Shown here: positions 43,905-51,557 of the stretch, piece after piece
How the letters are laid out: every line of letters begins with the position of its first letter
Position numbering within the stretch: position 1 is the first letter of the stretch
Assembly: GCA_965221065.1 (NCBI GenBank)
Contig: OZ244861.1
Span: 2,062,984 to 2,126,983 of the forward strand
Length of the DNA stretch: 64,000 nt
DNA from: Dehalococcoidia bacterium
GTDB taxonomy: Bacteria; Chloroflexota; Dehalococcoidia; Bin125
Direction: 5' to 3'
The notes under the pieces: generated by a model
Told to the model about the DNA's origin: nothing
Database searches by the model: none
What the model saw: only the letters and a program-made list of their open reading frames with translations
Program-made: the position numbers and the translations under genes

Positions 43905-44759
43905 TCAGGCCGCGAGCTGCCGCCCTCCCTGGTTCAGGTATCCGCGCAACTCCGCCAGTACCTGCTCGCGCCGCCCCTCCGTCCAACCCATCTCCCTCGC
44001 GATCCTCAGCGCCGGTTGACGCGTGCCCGAGGCGAACGGCCCGGATGCTTCGTGAAACGTGTTGATGTGCACTCGGGAGACTCCGGTCTCAAGGATCCGC
44101 TCCGCGAACGCACCGGCGTCGTTCAACGGCAGCAGCGGCGACACGTTGATCCGCGTCTTGAAGCCCTCCCGCGACAACCGACTGATCGCCTCGAACCGAC
44201 GATCAATACTGGCGCATTGCGGTTCGAACAGCTTGCGCACCTCGTCTGAGTCGGTCGTGATGCTCATCGTGATGTTGAGGTGCTCGAACGTCTCGAACAG
44301 GTCGATGTCGCGCGTCACCAGCGGACTGCGCGACAGCACCGCCAGGCGCGCCCCGCGCTGAGCGAGGATCGGCAGCAGCGAACGAGTCAGCTCCAGTCGC
44401 GCTTCAATCGGCTGATACGGATCCGTCGCGCTGCTCATCAGCACCGTCCTGCCATGCAGGTTCTGCCGGGAGTTGCGCAGCTTGGCGATCGCATTCGTCT
44501 TAACCCGAACCCACTGTCCCCACCGCTCCCGCTGCTCCTCCTCCGCCACAAAGAACGCCGCATAGCAGTACGTGCAGGCGAACGTGCAGCCCTGGTAAGG
44601 ATTGATCACGAAATCCAGGTCGGCCAGCCGTCCCGTCGGCCGCGCAAGAATCGCCGATGAATCCACATAGATGACATCGGCAGTCCCCTGAGTTCGTGGT
44701 CTGGCAGGCGCGGGGTTCGGGTCAAAGAGAGATAGCTGCAACATGACAATAGAGTACAC
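43905..44759 (-). CDS. radical SAM protein of the SPL/COG1533 (DNA repair photolyase-like) family
   Basis: INPYQGCTFACTYCYA (Cx3Cx2C) and overall resemblance to SplB-like proteins; GTG 44759 or ATG 44744 start. Confidence 0.6.
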   Translation of the reverse strand: MYSIVMLQLSLFDPNPAPARPRTQGTADVIYVDSSAILARPTGRLADLDFVINPYQGCTFACTYCYAAFFVAEEEQRERWGQWVRVKTNAIAKLRNSRQNLHGRTVLMSSATDPYQPIEARLELTRSLLPILAQRGARLAVLSRSPLVTRDIDLFETFEHLNITMSITTDSDEVRKLFEPQCASIDRRFEAISRLSREGFKTRINVSPLLPLNDAGAFAERILETGVSRVHINTFHEASGPFASGTRQPALRIAREMGWTEGRREQVLAELRGYLNQGGRQLAA

Positions 44760-44955
44760 ATGTTCTCTATCTCAGTCAAGAACATATGTGTTTCGCCGTC
44801 CGCTCTTGAACTATGTACATGCCCCAACAAGGTCGGCCCCGCGAAGACGGGCCGGACAGCGCAGGCTGGGCCGGACAGCACCGAAATCGCGGTGGCGCCC
44901 CCGCCGACGCTCCGCTCTCCCATTCACCCTGGACCCCTGCAGGTCAGCCCATTCC

Positions 44956-45006
44956 CCTCTCCCCCCGCGCGAGCGGGGGAAGATGCCGCAGGCAGAGGGG
45001 GGCTCC
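44956..45006. repeat. GC-rich hairpin repeat, copy 1 (CCCCCCGCG-cgag-CGGGGG ... CAGAGGGGGGC)
   Basis: Shares the ...ctccccccgc[loop]gcgggggg...gcagaggggggc... core with the copies at 47056 and 47424. Confidence 0.5.
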
Positions 45007-45034
45007 CGCCAGATGTGAACCGCCAACGATGCAA

Positions 45035-45058
45035 CGACCCTCCCAAACGGGAGGGTCG
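45035..45058. terminator. candidate terminator hairpin downstream of the D-aminoacylase gene
   Basis: Perfect GACCCTCCC-aaac-GGGAGGGTC stem-loop about 27 nt past the minus-strand stop at 45085. Confidence 0.45.
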
Positions 45059-45084
45059 TCGAGCAAGGGGTGCCGCACGCGTGA

Positions 45085-46794
45085 CTACCGGGCGCCGCGA
45101 ATCAGCTGACCCGGTCGAGCACCCGTCTCCTCACCGTGCCGGCTGATCACTTCACCGCTCACGATCGTCGCCACGTACCCGCGCGACTTCTGGATCAGAC
45201 GCATTGCCTCGGTCGGCAGATCATGAACCGCCTGGGGCGGCTCCAACTGCAGGGCTTCGTAGTCAATCACGTTGACGTCGCCCTTCTTGCCAACCTCAAG
45301 CGTGCCTCGGTCGCCCAGGCCGTACAGCTCTGCCGTGTCATTGGTCATCCGCTTGACAACCCACTCCAGCGGCAGCTTCTCGCCGCGGCTGCGGTCGCGC
45401 GACCAGTGAGTCAACATGAACGTCGGCATTGAGGCGTCGCAGATCACGCCGCAGTGCGCGCCTCCGTCCGACAGTCCCATCGCCACGCGCGGGTGCATCA
45501 TCATCTCGCGCGTCGCGTCGAGGTTGTTGTGCGCGTAGTTGAACAGCGGCGCGAACAGCACATTCTCGCCGTCGCCCTCGCTCAGGAAGTCGTACGCGAA
45601 CTCCAGCGCCGTTTGACCGGCCGCCTCCGAGCGCGCCGCCACCGACTCCTCCGCGGTCGGCTCGTAGTTCGGCGGGTCGGTCATCGGGTAGAGCTTGTTC
45701 CACATCACAAAGCCGAGCGCCGCATCCGGTGCCTCGACTTCCGCGAGGATCTTCTCCTTGCGCTGCGGATCCCGCATCGCCTCCGCACGCTCAGCCCAGT
45801 CGAGCTCGTCCAGCTCGCGGTAGCTGGCCGAGTGGATGAACGGGTGCCGTCCGCGCAGCGTCAGCAGTATCGAGATTCCGCGCGCTGCGACCTGCGGGTA
45901 CAGCTCGGCGCCGTCCTCCAGCGCTTCGAGCGAGCGGTCGAGCGCATCGCGCCACGCCTCCGGCTCGTTGTCGAACTGGACCATGGCGAAGCTCACCGGC
46001 CGCTCGATCTCCGCCGAGAGCTTCCGCATCCAGGCGATCTCCAGCTCGGGCGTGTTGGCGTCGTCGCCGGTCACTCCGGCCGGAGCCACCTCGTAGATCC
46101 CGGTGCCGAGTTCTTTGAGCGCCTGACCGATCCCGAACAGCTCGTCCTCGGCGGCAAACGTGCCGGGCACCGGCTCGCCGTCGATGGCCCGGTGCGCCAG
46201 CGTCCGCGAGGTCGTGAAGCCGAGCGCGCCGGCCTGCAGACCTTCCTTGACGATCGACGCCATCTCTTGGATGTCTTCCGGGTTGGCGTCCTCATTGCGC
46301 GCCCCGCGGTCGCCCATCACATAGGCGCGAACGGCGCCGTGCGGCACCTGCGTGCCGATATCGATCGCCTTCGGCAGTGTGTCGAGGAAGTCGAGGTACT
46401 CGGGGAACGATTCCCAGCCCCACTGCATGCCCTCGGCCAGGGCCGACCCGGGGATGTCCTCCACCCCCTCCATCAGCCCGATCAGCCAGTCGCGTCGATT
46501 CGGCGCTGCCGGCGCAAACCCAACCCCGCAGTTGCCGAACACTACCGTCGTCACGCCGTGCCAGAACGACGGCGTCAGCAGCGGGTCCCACGTGATCTGC
46601 CCGTCGAAGTGGGTGTGAATGTCGACGAAGCCCGGTGTCACGAGCAGGCCGTCGGCGTCGATTTCCTCGCGCCCCAGGTCGTTCACTTCGCCAATGGCGG
46701 CCACAACGCCGTCGTCAATGGCAATATCGGCCTGCCGCGCCGCAGCGCCGGTGCCGTCCACAACGAGGCCGTTGCGAATCACAAGATCGTGCAT
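45085..46794 (-). CDS. N-acyl-D-amino-acid deacylase (D-aminoacylase) family amidohydrolase
   Basis: From ATG 46794 (AAGGAA ribosome-binding site): MHDLVIRNGLVVDGTG...GFVDIHTHFDG metal-binding motif; ~569 aa. The further 126 in-frame upstream codons are the Gly-rich translation of a C-rich repeat region and are unlikely to be coding. Confidence 0.75.
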   Translation of the reverse strand: MHDLVIRNGLVVDGTGAAARQADIAIDDGVVAAIGEVNDLGREEIDADGLLVTPGFVDIHTHFDGQITWDPLLTPSFWHGVTTVVFGNCGVGFAPAAPNRRDWLIGLMEGVEDIPGSALAEGMQWGWESFPEYLDFLDTLPKAIDIGTQVPHGAVRAYVMGDRGARNEDANPEDIQEMASIVKEGLQAGALGFTTSRTLAHRAIDGEPVPGTFAAEDELFGIGQALKELGTGIYEVAPAGVTGDDANTPELEIAWMRKLSAEIERPVSFAMVQFDNEPEAWRDALDRSLEALEDGAELYPQVAARGISILLTLRGRHPFIHSASYRELDELDWAERAEAMRDPQRKEKILAEVEAPDAALGFVMWNKLYPMTDPPNYEPTAEESVAARSEAAGQTALEFAYDFLSEGDGENVLFAPLFNYAHNNLDATREMMMHPRVAMGLSDGGAHCGVICDASMPTFMLTHWSRDRSRGEKLPLEWVVKRMTNDTAELYGLGDRGTLEVGKKGDVNVIDYEALQLEPPQAVHDLPTEAMRLIQKSRGYVATIVSGEVISRHGEETGARPGQLIRGAR

Positions 46795-46954
46795 GGTGGT
46801 TCCTTCAGATTGCGGGATACGAGTCGCGGTAGGCACAGTATGCCAGATCACGCAGCCCCCACTCCCGCTCCCACCCCCTCCACCAACACCGCCCCCCCCA
46901 CATCCCCCCGTACCCCCTCTCCCCCCACCGAAGCCGCCCTCGCCCAACTCAAAG

Positions 46955-46980
46955 TCGCCCCCGCGCAGGCGGGGGCCGCC
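46955..46980. repeat. GC-rich hairpin GCCCCCGC-gcag-GCGGGGGC
   Basis: Perfect 8-bp stem with GCAG loop; same stem/loop family as neighbouring repeats. Confidence 0.45.
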
Positions 46981-47055
46981 CCCTACGCCCACGTCCCCTC
47001 TTACTCCCTCTCCCTCTGGGAGAGGGCCGGGGTGAGGGTCCCTTCCCCCGCTCCC

Positions 47056-47109
47056 ATCTCCCCCCGCCGTCAGGCGGGGGGAGATGTCACGTAGTGACAG
47101 AGGGGGGCA
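47056..47109. repeat. composite hairpin repeat, copy 2: CATCTCCCCCCGCC-gtca-GGCGGGGGGAGATG + TGTCAC-gta-GTGACA + GAGGGGGGC
   Basis: Perfect 14-bp stem, second 6-bp palindrome, shared tail. Its minus-strand translation (PPLSLRDISPRL) recurs at copy 3. Confidence 0.6.
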
Positions 47110-47195
47110 CGCCACACCCCGAGGGCATCTCCCATCCGCCCCAAACCCCATACAATCAGAACATACGTACACCTACGAGATCAGGAGCCCCAACC

Positions 47196-47522
47196 ATGCC
47201 CAACCCCTACCACTTCCGAGCCCGCATCGACCGACTCTGGCGCCGAGCCAACAGCTCCCTCCCCGGCTACATCCGGCTCAAGGCCCTCGACACCGTCGCC
47301 CGAGAGCTCTACCGCCCCACCGACAAGGCCCGTCAAAACCTCAAGATGTACCTCGCCACCGACCCCTACGAAGTCGCCCGCCACAAACTCCGCCACCTCC
47401 ACGATGTCGCCCTCGCGCTCCCCTCTCCCCCCGCCGCAGGCGGGGGGAGATGTCTCGTAGAGACAGAGGGGGGCCTCCCACAGGACGAGCAACCACCTGA
47501 CGAAGACGACGACCCCCTGTAA
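47196..47522 (+). CDS. hypothetical small protein (~108 aa; about the last 30 aa are read through repeat copy 3)
   Basis: ATG 47196 with AGGAG ribosome-binding site 8 nt upstream; MPNPYHFRARIDRLWRRANSSLPGYIRLKALDTVARELYRPTDKARQNLKMYLATDPYEVARHKL...; no recognisable family. Confidence 0.4.
   Translation: MPNPYHFRARIDRLWRRANSSLPGYIRLKALDTVARELYRPTDKARQNLKMYLATDPYEVARHKLRHLHDVALALPSPPAAGGGRCLVETEGGLPQDEQPPDEDDDPL
47424..47480. repeat. composite hairpin repeat, copy 3: TCTCCCCCCGCC-gca-GGCGGGGGGAGA + TGTCTC-gta-GAGACA + GAGGGGGGC
   Basis: Direct-orientation near-copy of 47056-47109, lying inside the 3' end of the small ORF. Confidence 0.6.
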
Positions 47523-47574
47523 CCGCCAACCTCATCTCTTTTTTTCCCGCGCGTTTTTTCCTGACGGGGATACA
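47523..47574. terminator. T-rich tract (T7...CCCGCGCG...T6) between the convergent small ORF (+) and membrane-protein gene (-); possible bidirectional terminator
   Basis: T runs of this length are extremely unusual in a ~68% GC background; no strong upstream stem is seen, so the assignment is tentative. Confidence 0.3.
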
Positions 47575-47931
47575 TCATCCCCCGGCCACGTCGCGCCCCC
47601 GCTCGGGAGCAACGGCCAGGAAGGGGAAGAGAGCGATGAACGTGAGCAAGCTGGCCAGACCCCAGCGCACCGGACTTCTCCCCTTGACTGCCGCCAGCCA
47701 GGCCGCCAGCGCCGCGTAGCCAACCCAGAGCACACCCCAGGTCCAACCGACCGTATCGGCGAAATCGGCCGGCCCGTCCGCATCCGATGACACCTCGGCC
47801 GTCGAGTTGGAACCCGTCGAGGACTCGACGTAGTTGATCGCGACAACGATCAGAGGAATCCAGATGGCGTACAGCAGCAGCGCAATCGCCAACCGATCCC
47901 GCGGCCACAGCCGGCGACGCAGTCCGGACAC
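47575..47931 (-). CDS. hypothetical small membrane protein (2-3 predicted TM helices)
   Basis: Hydrophobic segments LAIALLLYAIWIPLIVVAINYV, WGVLWVGYAALAAWLAAV, LASLLTFIALFPFLAVA; immediately downstream of the SGL paralogs. Confidence 0.5.
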   Translation of the reverse strand: MSGLRRRLWPRDRLAIALLLYAIWIPLIVVAINYVESSTGSNSTAEVSSDADGPADFADTVGWTWGVLWVGYAALAAWLAAVKGRSPVRWGLASLLTFIALFPFLAVAPERGRDVAGG

Positions 47932-47935
47932 GCCG

Positions 47936-48889
47936 CTAGCGCTGGTGGACCAGGGGCTCGCCGGGGATAGGCGAACGGGCGTGCAGGACGTAGTCAGTGG
48001 TAATCGAACCGATGTAGAGGTCGCGCATGTCGTCGCCGCCCCAACTGACGTTGGTCGGGTTCTGCATGATCTCGCCGTCGAGGTCTTCGATCATCGTCAC
48101 CACCTCGAGCTGCGGTGTGATTGCAACGACCTTGTTCGACATCACCAGCGTCACCCAGAGATTGCCCTCCTGGTCGAAGCCGCAGCCGTCGGTCAGACCG
48201 AGCTCACCGCGCTCTTCGGGCGAGAGGGGCTGCATCGCGTCGGCAAGGGCGATCGACTTGCCCAGCTGCGGGCCGTAGACCTCGGACTCGCCGAGCGTGC
48301 CGTCGGCGTGGATCGGGAAGCGCAGTACATGGCAGCCGCTCGTGGAGCAGACGTAGGCGTTCTCTTCGCGCGGGTCGAGCGTGATTCCGTTGGGGAACTC
48401 GACCTCGGTGGCGAGCATGGTCAGCGAGCCGTCCGTCTCGATCCGGAAGAGGAGGCCGTCGGGACCGCCGGCGGCGAGCGCGGCGTCTCCCGTGCGCGAA
48501 GTCGAGTGCGTGACCCAGATGCGGCCCTGAGAATCGACGTGGGGATAGTTGGACATGACCAGCGGGATGCCGTCGATCTCATCGGCGAGGACTTCAACCT
48601 CGCCGGTGTCGACGTCGAGCCGCTGCACCGGGCCGCTCGCGCCGCCGCCGTCGAGTCCGCCGACGTTGGCGATGATGATCCGGCCTTCGAGGTCCATGTT
48701 GTTGCCGTTGGGCAACCCGCCCGCGTTGCCGACGCGGTTGAGCGTGCCATCGGGCAGGGCCTCGGCGGCTGCCGAGGCCTGGTCGGCCATCCAGACGCGG
48801 CCGTCGCGCGAGACGACGACATCCTCCGGTCGCTGGACGCCGACGCCGACTTTGCTGAGTTGGTCCTTGCGGATTGGTGTGAGGGGCAT
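47936..48889 (-). CDS. SMP-30/gluconolactonase/LRE-like (SGL) six-bladed beta-propeller protein, paralog A
   Basis: From M 48889: MPLTPIRKDQLSKVGVGVQRPEDVVVSRDGRVWMAD...; repeated ...DSQGRIWVT..., ...DQEGNLWVT... blade motifs typical of lactonase/strictosidine-synthase-like propellers. Confidence 0.6.
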   Translation of the reverse strand: MPLTPIRKDQLSKVGVGVQRPEDVVVSRDGRVWMADQASAAAEALPDGTLNRVGNAGGLPNGNNMDLEGRIIIANVGGLDGGGASGPVQRLDVDTGEVEVLADEIDGIPLVMSNYPHVDSQGRIWVTHSTSRTGDAALAAGGPDGLLFRIETDGSLTMLATEVEFPNGITLDPREENAYVCSTSGCHVLRFPIHADGTLGESEVYGPQLGKSIALADAMQPLSPEERGELGLTDGCGFDQEGNLWVTLVMSNKVVAITPQLEVVTMIEDLDGEIMQNPTNVSWGGDDMRDLYIGSITTDYVLHARSPIPGEPLVHQR

Positions 48890-49065
48890 GGTGGTTTCTA
48901 GGTTGCAGCCTGTCTCGTTGCGCAAACTCACGCGGCGAGAGTCTAGCTGACGGTGAGGAAGTCGGTTGTACTCGAGCAACGATTGCGCCGCACGCACTCC
49001 GCACAGCCCGGCGTGTGCGCCTGGCCGACGGGCCGTCCATGCCGAATGACCGACACGTATGGCCG

Positions 49066-50016
49066 TTAGCGCTGATGGACCAGCGGCTCCCCGGGAATCG
49101 GCGAGCGGGCGTGGACGACGTAGTTGCTTCGGATTGAGCCGATGTACAGGTCGCTCATGTCGTTGCCGCCCCAGCTGACGTTGGTGGGCGCCTGCATGAT
49201 CTCGCCCTCGAGGTCCTCGATCATCGTGACGACCTCGAACTGCGGCGTGATCGCGACGACCTTGTTCGACATCGGCAGCGTGACCCAGAGGTTGCCCTCC
49301 TGGTCGAAACCGCAGCCATCGGTCAGGCCCAGCTCGCCGCGCTGCTCAGCCGACAACGGGCGCATGGCGGCCAGGTCCGCGACCGTCTTGCCCAGTTGAG
49401 GTCCGTAGACCTCGCGCTCGCCGAGCGAGCCGTCCTCGTTGATCGGGAAGCGCAGCACGTGGCAACCCAAGGTCGAGCAGACGTAGGCGTTCTCTTCCTG
49501 TGGGTCGAGCGTGATGCCGTTGGCGAACAAGATGTCAGTCGCGAGCATCGTCAGCGAACCGTCGGTCTCGATGCGGAAGAGGAAGCCGTCAGGCTCGCCG
49601 GAGAACGCGTCGGCACCCGACTGCGACGTCGAGTGGGTCACCCAGATGCGCCCCTGCGAGTCGACGTGCGGGTAATTGGACGAGACCAGCGGGATCCCGT
49701 CGATCTGATCCGCCAGCACCTCAATCTCGCCGCTCTCCACATCAAGGCGCTGGACCGGACCTCTGCCGCCCGGCGTCTCGAGTCCGCCGACATTGGCGAT
49801 GACGATCCGGCCTTCGGCGTCCATGTTGATCCCGTTGGGCGTCCCGCCGGCATTGCCGACTCGGTTCAGCGTGCCATCGGGCAGCGCCTCGACGACGGCC
49901 GACTCGGGGTCGGCGAGCCAGACGCGTCCGTCTCGGGAGACGACGACATCTTCCGGTCGTTGCGCGCCAACGCCGACTTTGCTGAGTTGGTCCTTGCGGA
50001 TTGGGGTGAGGGGCAT
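49066..50016 (-). CDS. SMP-30/gluconolactonase/LRE-like (SGL) beta-propeller protein, paralog B (~80% identical to A)
   Basis: From M 50016: MPLTPIRKDQLSKVGVGAQRPEDVVVSRDGRVWLAD...; colinear with paralog A over its full length. Confidence 0.6.
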   Translation of the reverse strand: MPLTPIRKDQLSKVGVGAQRPEDVVVSRDGRVWLADPESAVVEALPDGTLNRVGNAGGTPNGINMDAEGRIVIANVGGLETPGGRGPVQRLDVESGEIEVLADQIDGIPLVSSNYPHVDSQGRIWVTHSTSQSGADAFSGEPDGFLFRIETDGSLTMLATDILFANGITLDPQEENAYVCSTLGCHVLRFPINEDGSLGEREVYGPQLGKTVADLAAMRPLSAEQRGELGLTDGCGFDQEGNLWVTLPMSNKVVAITPQFEVVTMIEDLEGEIMQAPTNVSWGGNDMSDLYIGSIRSNYVVHARSPIPGEPLVHQR

Positions 50017-50030
50017 GTGGTTGATCCTGT

Positions 50031-51557
50031 CTAGGAAACGACGTCGTCCCAGACGCCGACTTCGGGCCCGCGCCAGTCGTGCTCGACCCGCGGATTGTCG
50101 CCGAGCACCTGGATCGGTTTGGCGCCGGCGTCCCAGGCGGGGGCGTCGACGCCGGCACCGGCGGGGTTGCCGGTCTTGGCGAAGTTGAGCCACGTGTCCA
50201 TCGTCAACTCAGAGAACGCGTCGGCGACAGGTCCGCTTCCACAAAACTCGGGTGCCGCGTCGTGCGTCCCGAAGACGAAGGGCAGCTCGAGCGCATGGCA
50301 GGAACCCAGCGCCCCGTTCATGCCCGGAGACTTCCAGTCGAACAGGTAGGCATACGTCGGAGCACGCGAGGTCTGCGCGTCGGCGAGCCGGAGACCTGGG
50401 ACGCGCAGCATGATGTCTCCGATCGCGGCCACGAAGATCTCGTCGGCCGAGTCGTCCTCGCCACGCTCGCGCCTGGCTGCTCGATACGTGCCATAGGCCG
50501 ACTCCGGTTCCGGGTGCATCATCCCGAACATCGCGGTAGCCGCCTCGTCGGTCATCGGTTCCGTCGGTCCCGCCGCGAGCAGCAGCTTCATCTCTTCATC
50601 GAGCGATCCGACCAGCGTCGCCACGCCGTCGGCCGAGCCGTTGCGGATGTGGTCGATAGGCAGTTGCGAGAGAAACGCCCCATCGATCACAGGCTGGAAC
50701 GGCATCTGCGGTGTGGCCGATGCGCCGGCGTCCGCCATGTCGGCTGCGGATTCTGCGCTCGCGAGGGGGTCAACGGCGACCGACGCCGCCAGGATGTCGG
50801 AAGCGTCCGCCGCCATCAACGCGTCGACATCCTCCGGCTCCACGCCGAGCGCCGCGCAGAACTTGAACGCAGTGCCGTTGGTCTCCTCAACGCTGAGCGC
50901 ATTGTGCCCGGCGCCGCTCTGGGGGATCGCCTTCTGGAACAGCCCGGCCGCCTCCGGCGAGGCCATCAGCGAGGCGACGCTCATCCCGCCCGCCGACTCG
51001 CCGAAGATCGTCACGTTGCTAGGGTCGCCGCCGAAGTTGGCGATGTTCTGCTGCACCCACTTGAGCGCCGCGACCTGGTCGCGCATGCCGAAGTTGGTCT
51101 GGCCGAGCGCAGGTAGGTTCAGGAAGCCGAGCGCGCCGAGTCGGTAGTTGATCGTCACGATCACCACGTCGCCGCGGGAGGCGAGGTTGGCGCCGTCGTA
51201 GTAGTCCTCGCTGCCGGAGCCGATCGTGAACGCGCCCCCGTGGATCCAGACCATGACCGGCCGCGCGCCGTCCAGACCGGGCGTCCAGACGTTGAGGTAG
51301 AGGCAGTCCTCGCTCTGCGGCTGCGGCGGGTCGGAGACCGGCAGCAGAGCCTCCAGCATCTCGTTGGGCGCCTGGAGCGAGATCGGGCCGAACGACTTGG
51401 CCGCGCGAACGCCCTCCCAGGATTCGACTGGTTGCGGCGCTTTGAAGCGAAGCTCGCCAACCGGCGGCGCGGCGAATGGGACACCGCGGAACACGCAGAG
51501 TCCGTTCTCTTCCGATCCCTCGATCGTTCCGGCAGTGGTTTGCGCGATGGCGCTCAT
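50031..51557 (-). CDS. type-B carboxylesterase/lipase family protein
   Basis: GESAGG nucleophile elbow, ...VWIHGGAF... oxyanion motif; AAGGAGACG ribosome-binding site upstream. Confidence 0.8.
   Translation of the reverse strand: MSAIAQTTAGTIEGSEENGLCVFRGVPFAAPPVGELRFKAPQPVESWEGVRAAKSFGPISLQAPNEMLEALLPVSDPPQPQSEDCLYLNVWTPGLDGARPVMVWIHGGAFTIGSGSEDYYDGANLASRGDVVIVTINYRLGALGFLNLPALGQTNFGMRDQVAALKWVQQNIANFGGDPSNVTIFGESAGGMSVASLMASPEAAGLFQKAIPQSGAGHNALSVEETNGTAFKFCAALGVEPEDVDALMAADASDILAASVAVDPLASAESAADMADAGASATPQMPFQPVIDGAFLSQLPIDHIRNGSADGVATLVGSLDEEMKLLLAAGPTEPMTDEAATAMFGMMHPEPESAYGTYRAARRERGEDDSADEIFVAAIGDIMLRVPGLRLADAQTSRAPTYAYLFDWKSPGMNGALGSCHALELPFVFGTHDAAPEFCGSGPVADAFSELTMDTWLNFAKTGNPAGAGVDAPAWDAGAKPIQVLGDNPRVEHDWRGPEVGVWDDVVS

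Follow-up and report, generated by a model that had tools for sequence, protein, structure and literature searches.

Hairpin elements and the genes around them

We describe here a family of short, GC-rich palindromic elements, three copies of which lie in a stretch of 64,000 nucleotides (hereafter, the window) from contig OZ244861.1 of a Dehalococcoidia bacterium (assembly GCA_965221065.1). The copies occur around a minus-strand amidohydrolase gene and a small plus-strand open reading frame (ORF), and one of them forms part of the coding sequence of the latter. The element copies and the small ORF are as follows.

44951..45008, plus strand: element copy 1, subtype with a short second hairpin; 62.5 bits against the covariance model (E=1e-13), predicted fold -34 kcal/mol.
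47050..47113, plus strand: element copy 2, long subtype; 83.2 bits; hairpin 2 is TGTCAC-GTA-GTGACA.
47417..47479, plus strand: element copy 3, long subtype; 82.9 bits; hairpin 2 is TGTCTC-GTA-GAGACA.
46914..46936, plus strand: truncated 5' half of the element (CCCCTCTCCCCCCACCGAAGCCG) in a C-rich tract; repeat family D2, the copy at 47420-47442 being 87% identical.
47196..47522, plus strand: small ORF of 108 amino acids, with an AGGAG ribosome-binding site at 47184-47188; 100% match to protein P0001.

Each of the three copies combines a 10-14 bp C6/G6 hairpin, a covarying second short hairpin and a tail, GAGGGGGG, with which a three-way junction could be closed. Copy 1 reads TCTCCCCCCGC-GCGA-GCGGGGGAAGA, then TGCC-GCA-GGCA and then GAGGGGGGC, and thus has the full architecture of the short-hairpin subtype rather than being the degenerate copy that an earlier note on this DNA had placed at 44962-44985. 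The stem of copy 2 is perfect over 14 bp (47055-47068/47073-47086), and that of copy 3, by sequence reading, has 12 bp and a 3-nt loop, so that the perfect 11-14-bp stems of the earlier note hold for both, apart from coordinates of copy 3 that were off by a few bases; the second palindrome it had recognized in these two copies is hairpin 2 of the long subtype. As direct repeats, copies 2 and 3 are spaced by 366 nt (about 370 bp in the note) and share 81% identity over 63 nt, and the 36-nt block GGCGGGGGGAGATGTCNCGTAGNGACAGAGGGGGGC occurs at exactly two places (47073-47108 and 47439-47474) and never in shuffled sequence. Their folding energies of -45.5 and -46.1 kcal/mol correspond to z scores of -5.6 and -4.6, respectively, relative to shuffles.

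A covariance model derived from 76 members of the family, applied without filters to the entire window, recovered exactly three members, all on the plus strand, and none in the remaining 61 kb. Hairpins of the simpler form C5GC..GCG5 number four in the window, all within 44962-47446, and none in shuffles. The hairpin at 46958-46975 (CCCCCGC-GCAG-GCGGGGG) scores only 10.9 bits (E ~1) versus 83, 83 and 62.5 bits for the true copies, and is therefore placed outside the element family. Of the at least four copies of one motif claimed previously, three consequently stand, and the one at 46955-46980 belongs to a different repeat family; the shared tail GAGGGGGGC follows 44951-45008 as well as copies 2 and 3.

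The three copies occupy different kinds of site. Copy 1 lies 77-134 nt past the stop codon of the amidohydrolase gene, antisense to it, and copy 2 lies in a divergent spacer, ~40 nt upstream of the promoter-like TACAAT of the small ORF. Copy 3 is located within the 3' third of the small ORF, in the sense orientation and in frame, where its translation contributes ...LPSPPAAGGGRCLVETEGGL... to the product; the same in-frame arrangement is seen in homologues of the small ORF. The repeats had been described as flanking this ORF and their shared peptide as the product of spurious ORFs, and both descriptions have to be given up: read on the plus strand, copy 3 encodes a segment of a real protein that is conserved, and "spurious repeat peptides" in these genomes can accordingly belong to genuine proteins, which is a warning for annotation.

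Spread and anatomy of the element family

The pattern CTCCCCCCGCC-N3-4-GGCGGGGGGAG, which represents hairpin 1, was found in at least 115 stretches of representative genomes. Hairpin 1 alone occurs in many phyla, but the full element (hairpin 1, GA, hairpin 2 and the GAGGGGGG tail) was confined, among the matches listed, to metagenome-assembled genomes labelled Chloroflexi, Chloroflexota or Dehalococcoidia; one further match lies on a 3.4-kb contig that was assigned, probably wrongly, to a Gemmatimonadetes bin. Matches of at least 48 bits to the covariance model number approximately 100 in 48 Chloroflexota/Dehalococcoidia loci (identified below by L numbers) from about 12 assemblies, versus at most 45 bits outside the lineage, and the motif is thus a dispersed one rather than one found only here. 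Several of the element-bearing isolate names resemble those of sponge-metagenome bins. A blastn search of a plasmid collection with the window element gave no match, and a literature search by raw sequence strings of the element returned nothing relevant.

The consensus, TTCCC CTC TCCCCCCGCC-loop-GGCGGGGGGA GA TGTCNC-GTA-GNGACA GAGGGGGG CACGCC, is ~55-64 nt long. It can be drawn as an outer stem (CCCCTC/GAGGGG) enclosing hairpin 1 (TCCCCCC(GCC)-loop-(GGC)GGGGGGA), a GA spacer and hairpin 2, the last being TGTCNC-GTA-GNGACA in the long subtype and TGCC-GAA-GGCA in the short one. This three-way junction accounts for 95.9% of cells as paired, compared with 57-68% when the pairing partners are slid. 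Hairpin 2 covaries: at pair 38-48, 41 sequences have UA and 34 have CG, and pair 40-46 is AU in 17, CG in 17, UA in 5 and GC in 2. Since these compensatory changes alter the encoded residues (RCLVETEGG, RCPVGTEGG, RCHVVTEGG), selection acts on DNA or RNA pairing and not on the peptide.

Location, mobility and strand polarity

The elements avoid gene interiors: of 82 copies, only nine have a midpoint deeper than 150 nt within a called ORF, where 60% would be expected (P=3e-20), so that the motif is far from equally frequent in coding regions, and many copies lie 1-60 nt from gene ends. They are arranged as singlets, inverted doublets and clusters, and the long and short subtypes often pair tail-to-tail with a conserved spacer, CACGCCCGACGTCGCGCGCACGGAG (L050, L094, L103, L114 and L085). 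Evidence for mobility comes from an orthologous spacer between convergent genes. In L067 it is empty and ~9 nt long, in L052 it is an unrelated sequence of 30 nt, L068 has one element there, and L050 has three (-> <- ->). Presence and absence at orthologous sites show that copies have spread within and between genomes. [quoted passage not shown]

The elements also have a marked strand polarity. With the element and 300 nt on each side masked, and restricting the test to loci with an absolute GC skew of at least 0.03, the top strand of the element lies on the C-rich DNA strand at 25 of 27 loci (48 of 54 elements, P=6e-6). The window is consistent with this rule, as its 40-48 kb region has a GC skew of -0.11 and all three copies are on the plus strand. 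In L116 (ena:ERZ25084387:ctg36555c, 3186921-3199280), a very strong strand asymmetry of ~+/-0.2 GC skew is present regardless of gene orientation, with a coding-strand skew of +0.14 to +0.27 for plus-strand genes and of -0.13 to -0.26 for minus-strand genes. Because the skew in this locus does not depend on gene direction, GC skew was taken as replication-associated.

Copies inside genes are all in the sense orientation, and the small ORF is not the only example. In L031, an element lies in a loop of a TatD hydrolase, where the insert of ~32 amino acids is spanned by one continuous Pfam TatD_DNase match (residues 8-291 vs a profile of 253 positions); at this same site, the TatD orthologues of four genomes have 1, 2, 2 and 3 units derived from the element, arranged in tandem. 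A gene resembling the large subunit of a phage terminase contains an element copy in two genomes.

The small protein and its mosaic linker

The product of the small ORF (MPNPYHFRARIDRLWRR...HLHDVALA-LPSPPAAGGGRCLVETEGG-LPQDEQPPDEDDDPL) has the following layout.

Residues 1-73: basic N-terminal domain of four helices.
Residues ~74-100: disordered linker, partly encoded by the element.
C-terminus: acidic tip, DEDDDPL.

AlphaFold, run with the family alignment, assigned a predicted local distance difference test score above 90 to residues 1-70 and below 50 to residues 80-108. Searches of the protein against Pfam, NCBIfam, PDB sequences and PHROG assigned it to no family, and structure searches identified neither a fold relative nor a nucleic-acid-binding relative. 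With the N-terminal 74 residues as the query, 110 protein clusters were retrieved (P0001 at 100% and 109 others), from Chloroflexi or Chloroflexota where named. The gene is multi-copy, with at least five paralogues on the 3,136,402-bp contig that carries P0001 and at least eight on a contig of 3,327,587 bp. These paralogues sit between unrelated housekeeping genes, and homology between their loci is limited to ~500 bp, from ~-55 to ~+90 around the ORF. Besides the window, homologous units were found in L007, L038, L045, L070, L083, L090, L095, L108, L116 and L117. The downstream part of the unit in the window is the following.

47523..47610, plus strand: conserved 3' region, kept among paralogous units while the flanks beyond differ.

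In this region, which is not a canonical terminator, T-runs of 6-8 occur twice, within a genome of 66% GC.

The linker is built from at least four palindromic repeat families, of which the element is one, copy 3 being translated in frame. Two companion families are also present in the form of their own DNA copies (LKVAPAQAGA and LPLGEGRGEG in translation), which form a stack with copy 2 ahead of the small ORF.

46945..46980, plus strand: hairpin of a different repeat family (CTCAAAGTCGCCCCCGCGCAGGCGGGGGCC), scoring 10.9 bits (E ~1) and not a member of the element family; its in-frame translation is LKVAPAQAGA.
46998..47043, plus strand: copy of a third repeat family (CCCTCTCCCTCTGGGAGAGGGCCGGGGTGAGGG), identified by sequence reading, with similar copies in L068, L090 and L012; its translation is LPLPLGEG(W/R)GEG.

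No linker segments are more common in the small-protein family than the translations of these two families. The representation of each segment among 129 sequences of the family is given below.

LPLGEGWGEG (repeat at 46998-47043): 63 of 129, as LPLPLGEG(W/R)GEG.
This element: about 25-28 of 129.
Nested ACPALDAG: 25 of 129.
VAPAKAGA (repeat at 46945-46980): 22 of 129, as LKVAPA(K/Q)AGA.
No recognisable repeat: about 20 of 129.

ACPALDAG is the translation of a 24-nt mini-palindrome, AGCCTGCCCCGCACTTGATGCGGG, which is nested in hairpin 2 of some element copies and in the GEGWGEG repeat; being eight codons long, it always keeps the reading frame. Loci with the nested mini-palindrome are given below.

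L083:1289-1375
L070:2299-2385
L048:6099-6185
L017:1686-1768
L117:5553-5636

Linkers differ even between close relatives. P0001 and P0005 are ~90% identical in the N-terminal domain, and P0001 carries a full element where P0005 has only LPSPPAA and then LKVAPAKAGA; because such similar domains carry different linkers, the linker is best described as a rapidly remodelled, frame-filtered mosaic of translated palindromic repeats. An acidic C-terminal tip such as EDDDPL or EDDDPW is present in 116 of the 129 sequences and is kept after the element.

The sense strand of the small ORF (47196-47405) is extremely C-rich and G-poor, with a third-position GC skew of -0.63 to -0.81 in 11 of 11 units, compared with a background of -0.10 +/- 0.22 in the other ORFs of these loci. 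This unusual composition, taken with the strand rule, may explain why elements have piled up at the unit in the sense orientation.

Upstream of the small ORF lies a candidate control region.

47151..47170, plus strand: promoter-like TACAAT (47151-47156), then AGAACATACGTAC (47158-47170), a GAAC-N4-GTAC dyad that may be compared with the LexA box GAAC-N4-GTTC.

Variants of GAAC-N4-GTTC have been reported for LexA of Chloroflexi (PMC4951493). A TACAAT-like hexamer followed by AGAAC-N4-GT(A/T/C)C, with a variable right half-site, precedes 11 small-ORF paralogues or orthologues at a conserved position; the unit in L038 has a perfect dyad, GAACAAACGTTC, and eight of the 15 dyad sites in 418 kb precede a member of the small-ORF gene family. 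LexA boxes are no more numerous in the window than expected by chance. GAAC-N4-GTWC has only two sites in the 64 kb, one, also among the 15, at 44745-44800 upstream of a radical-SAM gene (43905-44759, perhaps SplB-like) and the other at 47158-47170. The small gene is possibly under LexA (SOS) control, and the locus thus flags an uncharacterised, possibly SOS-controlled protein family.

Interpretation of the hairpins

The hairpins are probably three copies of a non-autonomous palindromic mobile element of ~55-64 nt that is native to an uncultured Chloroflexota lineage. The family is selfish DNA similar to REPs and to REPINs (REP doublets forming hairpins). Its copies accumulate where they are tolerated, namely in short spacers at gene ends, in repeat clusters, and in disordered protein segments if the insert length keeps the frame. 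At the present locus, copy 1 occupies the spacer 3' of the amidohydrolase gene, copy 2 is part of a stack of three different repeat families, and copy 3 lies in a linker in which it is translated. The amidohydrolase is a mere neighbour outside the element system, and the copies cluster around the small-ORF unit; the earlier suggestion of insertion scars around an accessory gene is not supported.

As orientation follows strand composition, and as pairing rather than peptide is conserved, mobilization would act on single-stranded DNA hairpins and be tied to replication, as for IS200/IS605 insertion sequences and for REPs moved by REP-associated tyrosine transposases (RAYTs). IS200/IS605 transposases are described as recognising element-end hairpins on the lagging-strand template, and REPs as similar structures that are viewed as related substrates (PMC6006769). 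The strand polarity of the element resembles that produced by IS200/IS605 single-stranded-DNA transposition on one replication template (PMC6006769).

Several observations weigh against the mobile-element interpretation. The only three copies in the window all lie within 2.6 kb of its 64 kb. The link between skew and replication direction is assumed from GC skew read locus by locus. The search for a RAYT or an IS200-type transposase, which the earlier note had proposed, gave no match in a regular-expression scan for RAYT motifs over ~1 Mb of loci and the window, a weak test with whole genomes outside its scope. All-against-all clustering of ORFs in 353 kb flanking the elements revealed no enriched transposase-like family; the clusters enriched there are the small ORF, CoA-transferases and a terminase-like cluster. 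Neither flank profiles nor one pair of empty and filled sites showed a target-site duplication or a defined target, and the terminal inverted repeat of the element is limited to a 6-nt outer repeat. The terminal GTAG/CGTC tag of classical REPs is missing from the element ends (TTCCC... and ...GAGGGGGGCACGCC), and GTAG is found only inside hairpin 2 of the long subtype. Finally, the outer stem varies by C-to-U changes only, opposite an invariant G, which is compatible with top-strand pairing and makes this helix a putative one.

The foremost alternative is that the elements are RNA structures selected by the host (3'-end stabilisers, bidirectional terminators or attenuators) and kept for a role in transcripts rather than for mobility. 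Such a role would account for the many copies close to gene ends and in tiny convergent spacers, for the very stable folds, and for the tolerance of U.G-type changes on the top strand only; a slight surplus of copies that are sense to the neighbouring gene also points this way (28 vs 14, Fisher P=0.04), although it is derived from crude gene calls based on GC at third codon positions and is not relied on. However, a terminator consensus scan flagged none of the three copies, each of which is followed by GAGGGGGGC and not by a T-run, and the stems as terminators, which the earlier note had offered as another possibility, are accordingly set aside. An Rfam 15 scan of the region at a permissive threshold returned only noise (best matches of 20 bits vs gathering scores of 35-105), so that no Rfam family is matched. 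In addition, the elements occur in both orientations relative to genes and also between divergent genes, strand composition predicts their orientation far better than gene direction does, one orthologous site holds from zero to three copies, and some copies are in frame inside coding regions. We therefore regard a host-selected RNA structure as unlikely.

A second alternative treats the elements and the small ORF as parts of a single functional system, in which the small basic protein binds the hairpins, or the hairpin in the mRNA and upstream of the gene regulates it, which would explain the clustering of copies around the gene. In its favour, eight of the 48 loci fetched for the hairpin alone also hold a small-ORF homologue, with the hairpin inside it or within ~150 nt, and in the window, L090, L045 and L095 an upstream copy and the promoter are similarly spaced. 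The combination of a basic helical domain with an acidic tail, and the conserved LexA-box-like dyad upstream of the gene, would also suit such a system. On the other hand, the majority of copies lie at a distance from every small ORF, only ~20% of the linkers in the family carry this element while the others carry unrelated repeats or none, and the structure searches gave no nucleic-acid-binding relative; the different linkers of 90% identical proteins fit tolerated insertion better than a required cis element. This alternative is, in our judgement, quite improbable.

In a bolder version of the same idea, the basic four-helix protein, controlled by DNA damage through a LexA-box-like site and ending in an acidic tip resembling that of single-stranded DNA-binding protein (SSB), would act on single-stranded hairpins at replication forks, its own linker being continually remodelled from those elements, and the layout shared with the Rhizobiaceae repeats described below would reflect a cross-phylum superfamily moved by non-RAYT machinery; this we put forward as a speculation with little chance of being correct.

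That the copies are merely a local duplication, or a repeat module under selection at the level of the protein, for its peptide, would agree with the tight grouping of the window copies and with the recurrence of the peptide PSPPAGGGRC..TEGG in proteins, but is refuted by the dispersal of the family over many genomes, by the mostly intergenic location in both orientations, and by compensatory changes that keep the stem and alter amino acids, and we give it almost no weight.

Three further candidates were ruled out: a CRISPR array, by the lack of regular spacing; a riboswitch or small RNA, by the absence of an Rfam family, the occurrence in both orientations and the copies inside coding regions; and an intrinsic terminator, by the lack of a T-run.

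Comparison with known repeat systems

The mobile element proposed here resembles REPs and REPINs in behaviour and shares with them short GC-rich palindromes, high local copy number, a location mainly at gene ends, an arrangement in singlets, inverted doublets and clusters, a few copies lying in frame within genes, polymorphic sites, and a strand-specific orientation bias compatible with a single-stranded-DNA mechanism. REPs within coding regions, as well as GTAG REPs in Chloroflexi, have been reported (Di Nocera et al., 2013; PMC3733652). In contrast to a REP, which is a single stem-loop of 20-40 nt, the element comprises two hairpins in a three-way junction of 55-64 nt, is without the terminal GTAG/CGTC tag, and has no RAYT in the scanned loci (~1 Mb) or the 353 kb of flanks. 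MITEs are likewise small, non-autonomous, structured and multi-copy, and can become joined in frame to host ORFs (PMC10969869). Unlike what is typical of them, the flank profiles and the one pair of empty and filled sites gave no sign of a target-site duplication, the inverted repeat at the ends has 6 nt, and no parent insertion sequence was identified.

Rickettsia palindromic elements (RPEs) insert in frame into protein-coding genes without destroying them (PMC10969869), and the palindromic repeats found here in frame inside intact genes (the small-ORF linker, TatD and the terminase-like gene) are comparable. RPEs are, however, ~100-150 bp long, come from a lineage of alphaproteobacteria, and were located inside ORFs in nearly half of the cases first described, whereas the present element is ~60 nt long and mostly intergenic, with one multi-copy gene serving as a hot spot for several repeat families.

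Very similar in structure is a two-hairpin repeat of Rhizobiaceae, ATCTCCCCCC-TTGN-GGGGGAGATG-NCC-GGCA-GGN-CAGAGGGGGGC, which has a near-identical layout and conserved blocks. These repeats are numerous and often form inverted pairs, their hairpin 2 covaries (TCC/GGA, CCC/GGG, GCC/GGC), and the Chloroflexota model detects them at 25-39 bits in matches that span the whole model. The repeat occurs in four viral-catalogue contigs and matches 150 Rhizobiaceae plasmids, at up to 36 places per record. It differs from the element in its shorter hairpin 1, which is without the GCC/GGC extension, in the GGCA loop of hairpin 2, and in its different phylum. The examples (L118-L122; Rhizobium etli plasmid NC_021908.1, 83989-84046) are unannotated, one lying between hutH and hutG. 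RIME and the "REP" sequences of S. meliloti are candidate names for these repeats.

A structured REP-like family, together with at least three companion families, is thus documented in an uncultured Chloroflexota lineage, and its strand-orientation rule suggests a replication-linked mechanism acting on single-stranded DNA. The small protein provides a clean example of translated palindromic repeats outside Rickettsia, with a patchwork linker of four families in which both the frame and the acidic C-terminus are kept, and indicates that selfish DNA can supply and diversify disordered protein segments.

Neighbouring genes and other observations

The neighbouring gene past whose stop codon copy 1 lies, earlier called a D-aminoacylase, is the following.

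45085..46794, minus strand: amidohydrolase of 569 amino acids; Pfam Amidohydro_3, E=1.5e-50.

A perfect 11-bp hairpin, ACGACCCTCCC-AAAC-GGGAGGGTCGT, at 45034-45059 (26-51 nt past the amidohydrolase stop) is unrelated to the element family and is probably the gene's own 3' hairpin. Further downstream in the window, positions 47932-50193 hold two tandem paralogous SMP-30/gluconolactonase-like genes with a DNA identity of 78-87% over ~1.1 kb.

A conserved gene of ~150 amino acids (MINRLSPPEGPP...NGPAYVQLGATKALARL...), preceded by AGAACACCCGTAC, is present in L017, L046, L101, L020 and L048, and its position in L046 is immediately upstream of the terminase-like gene. A short segment of its product resembles the PGYIRLKAL helix of the small ORF, and the gene may be a phage-derived relative of the latter.

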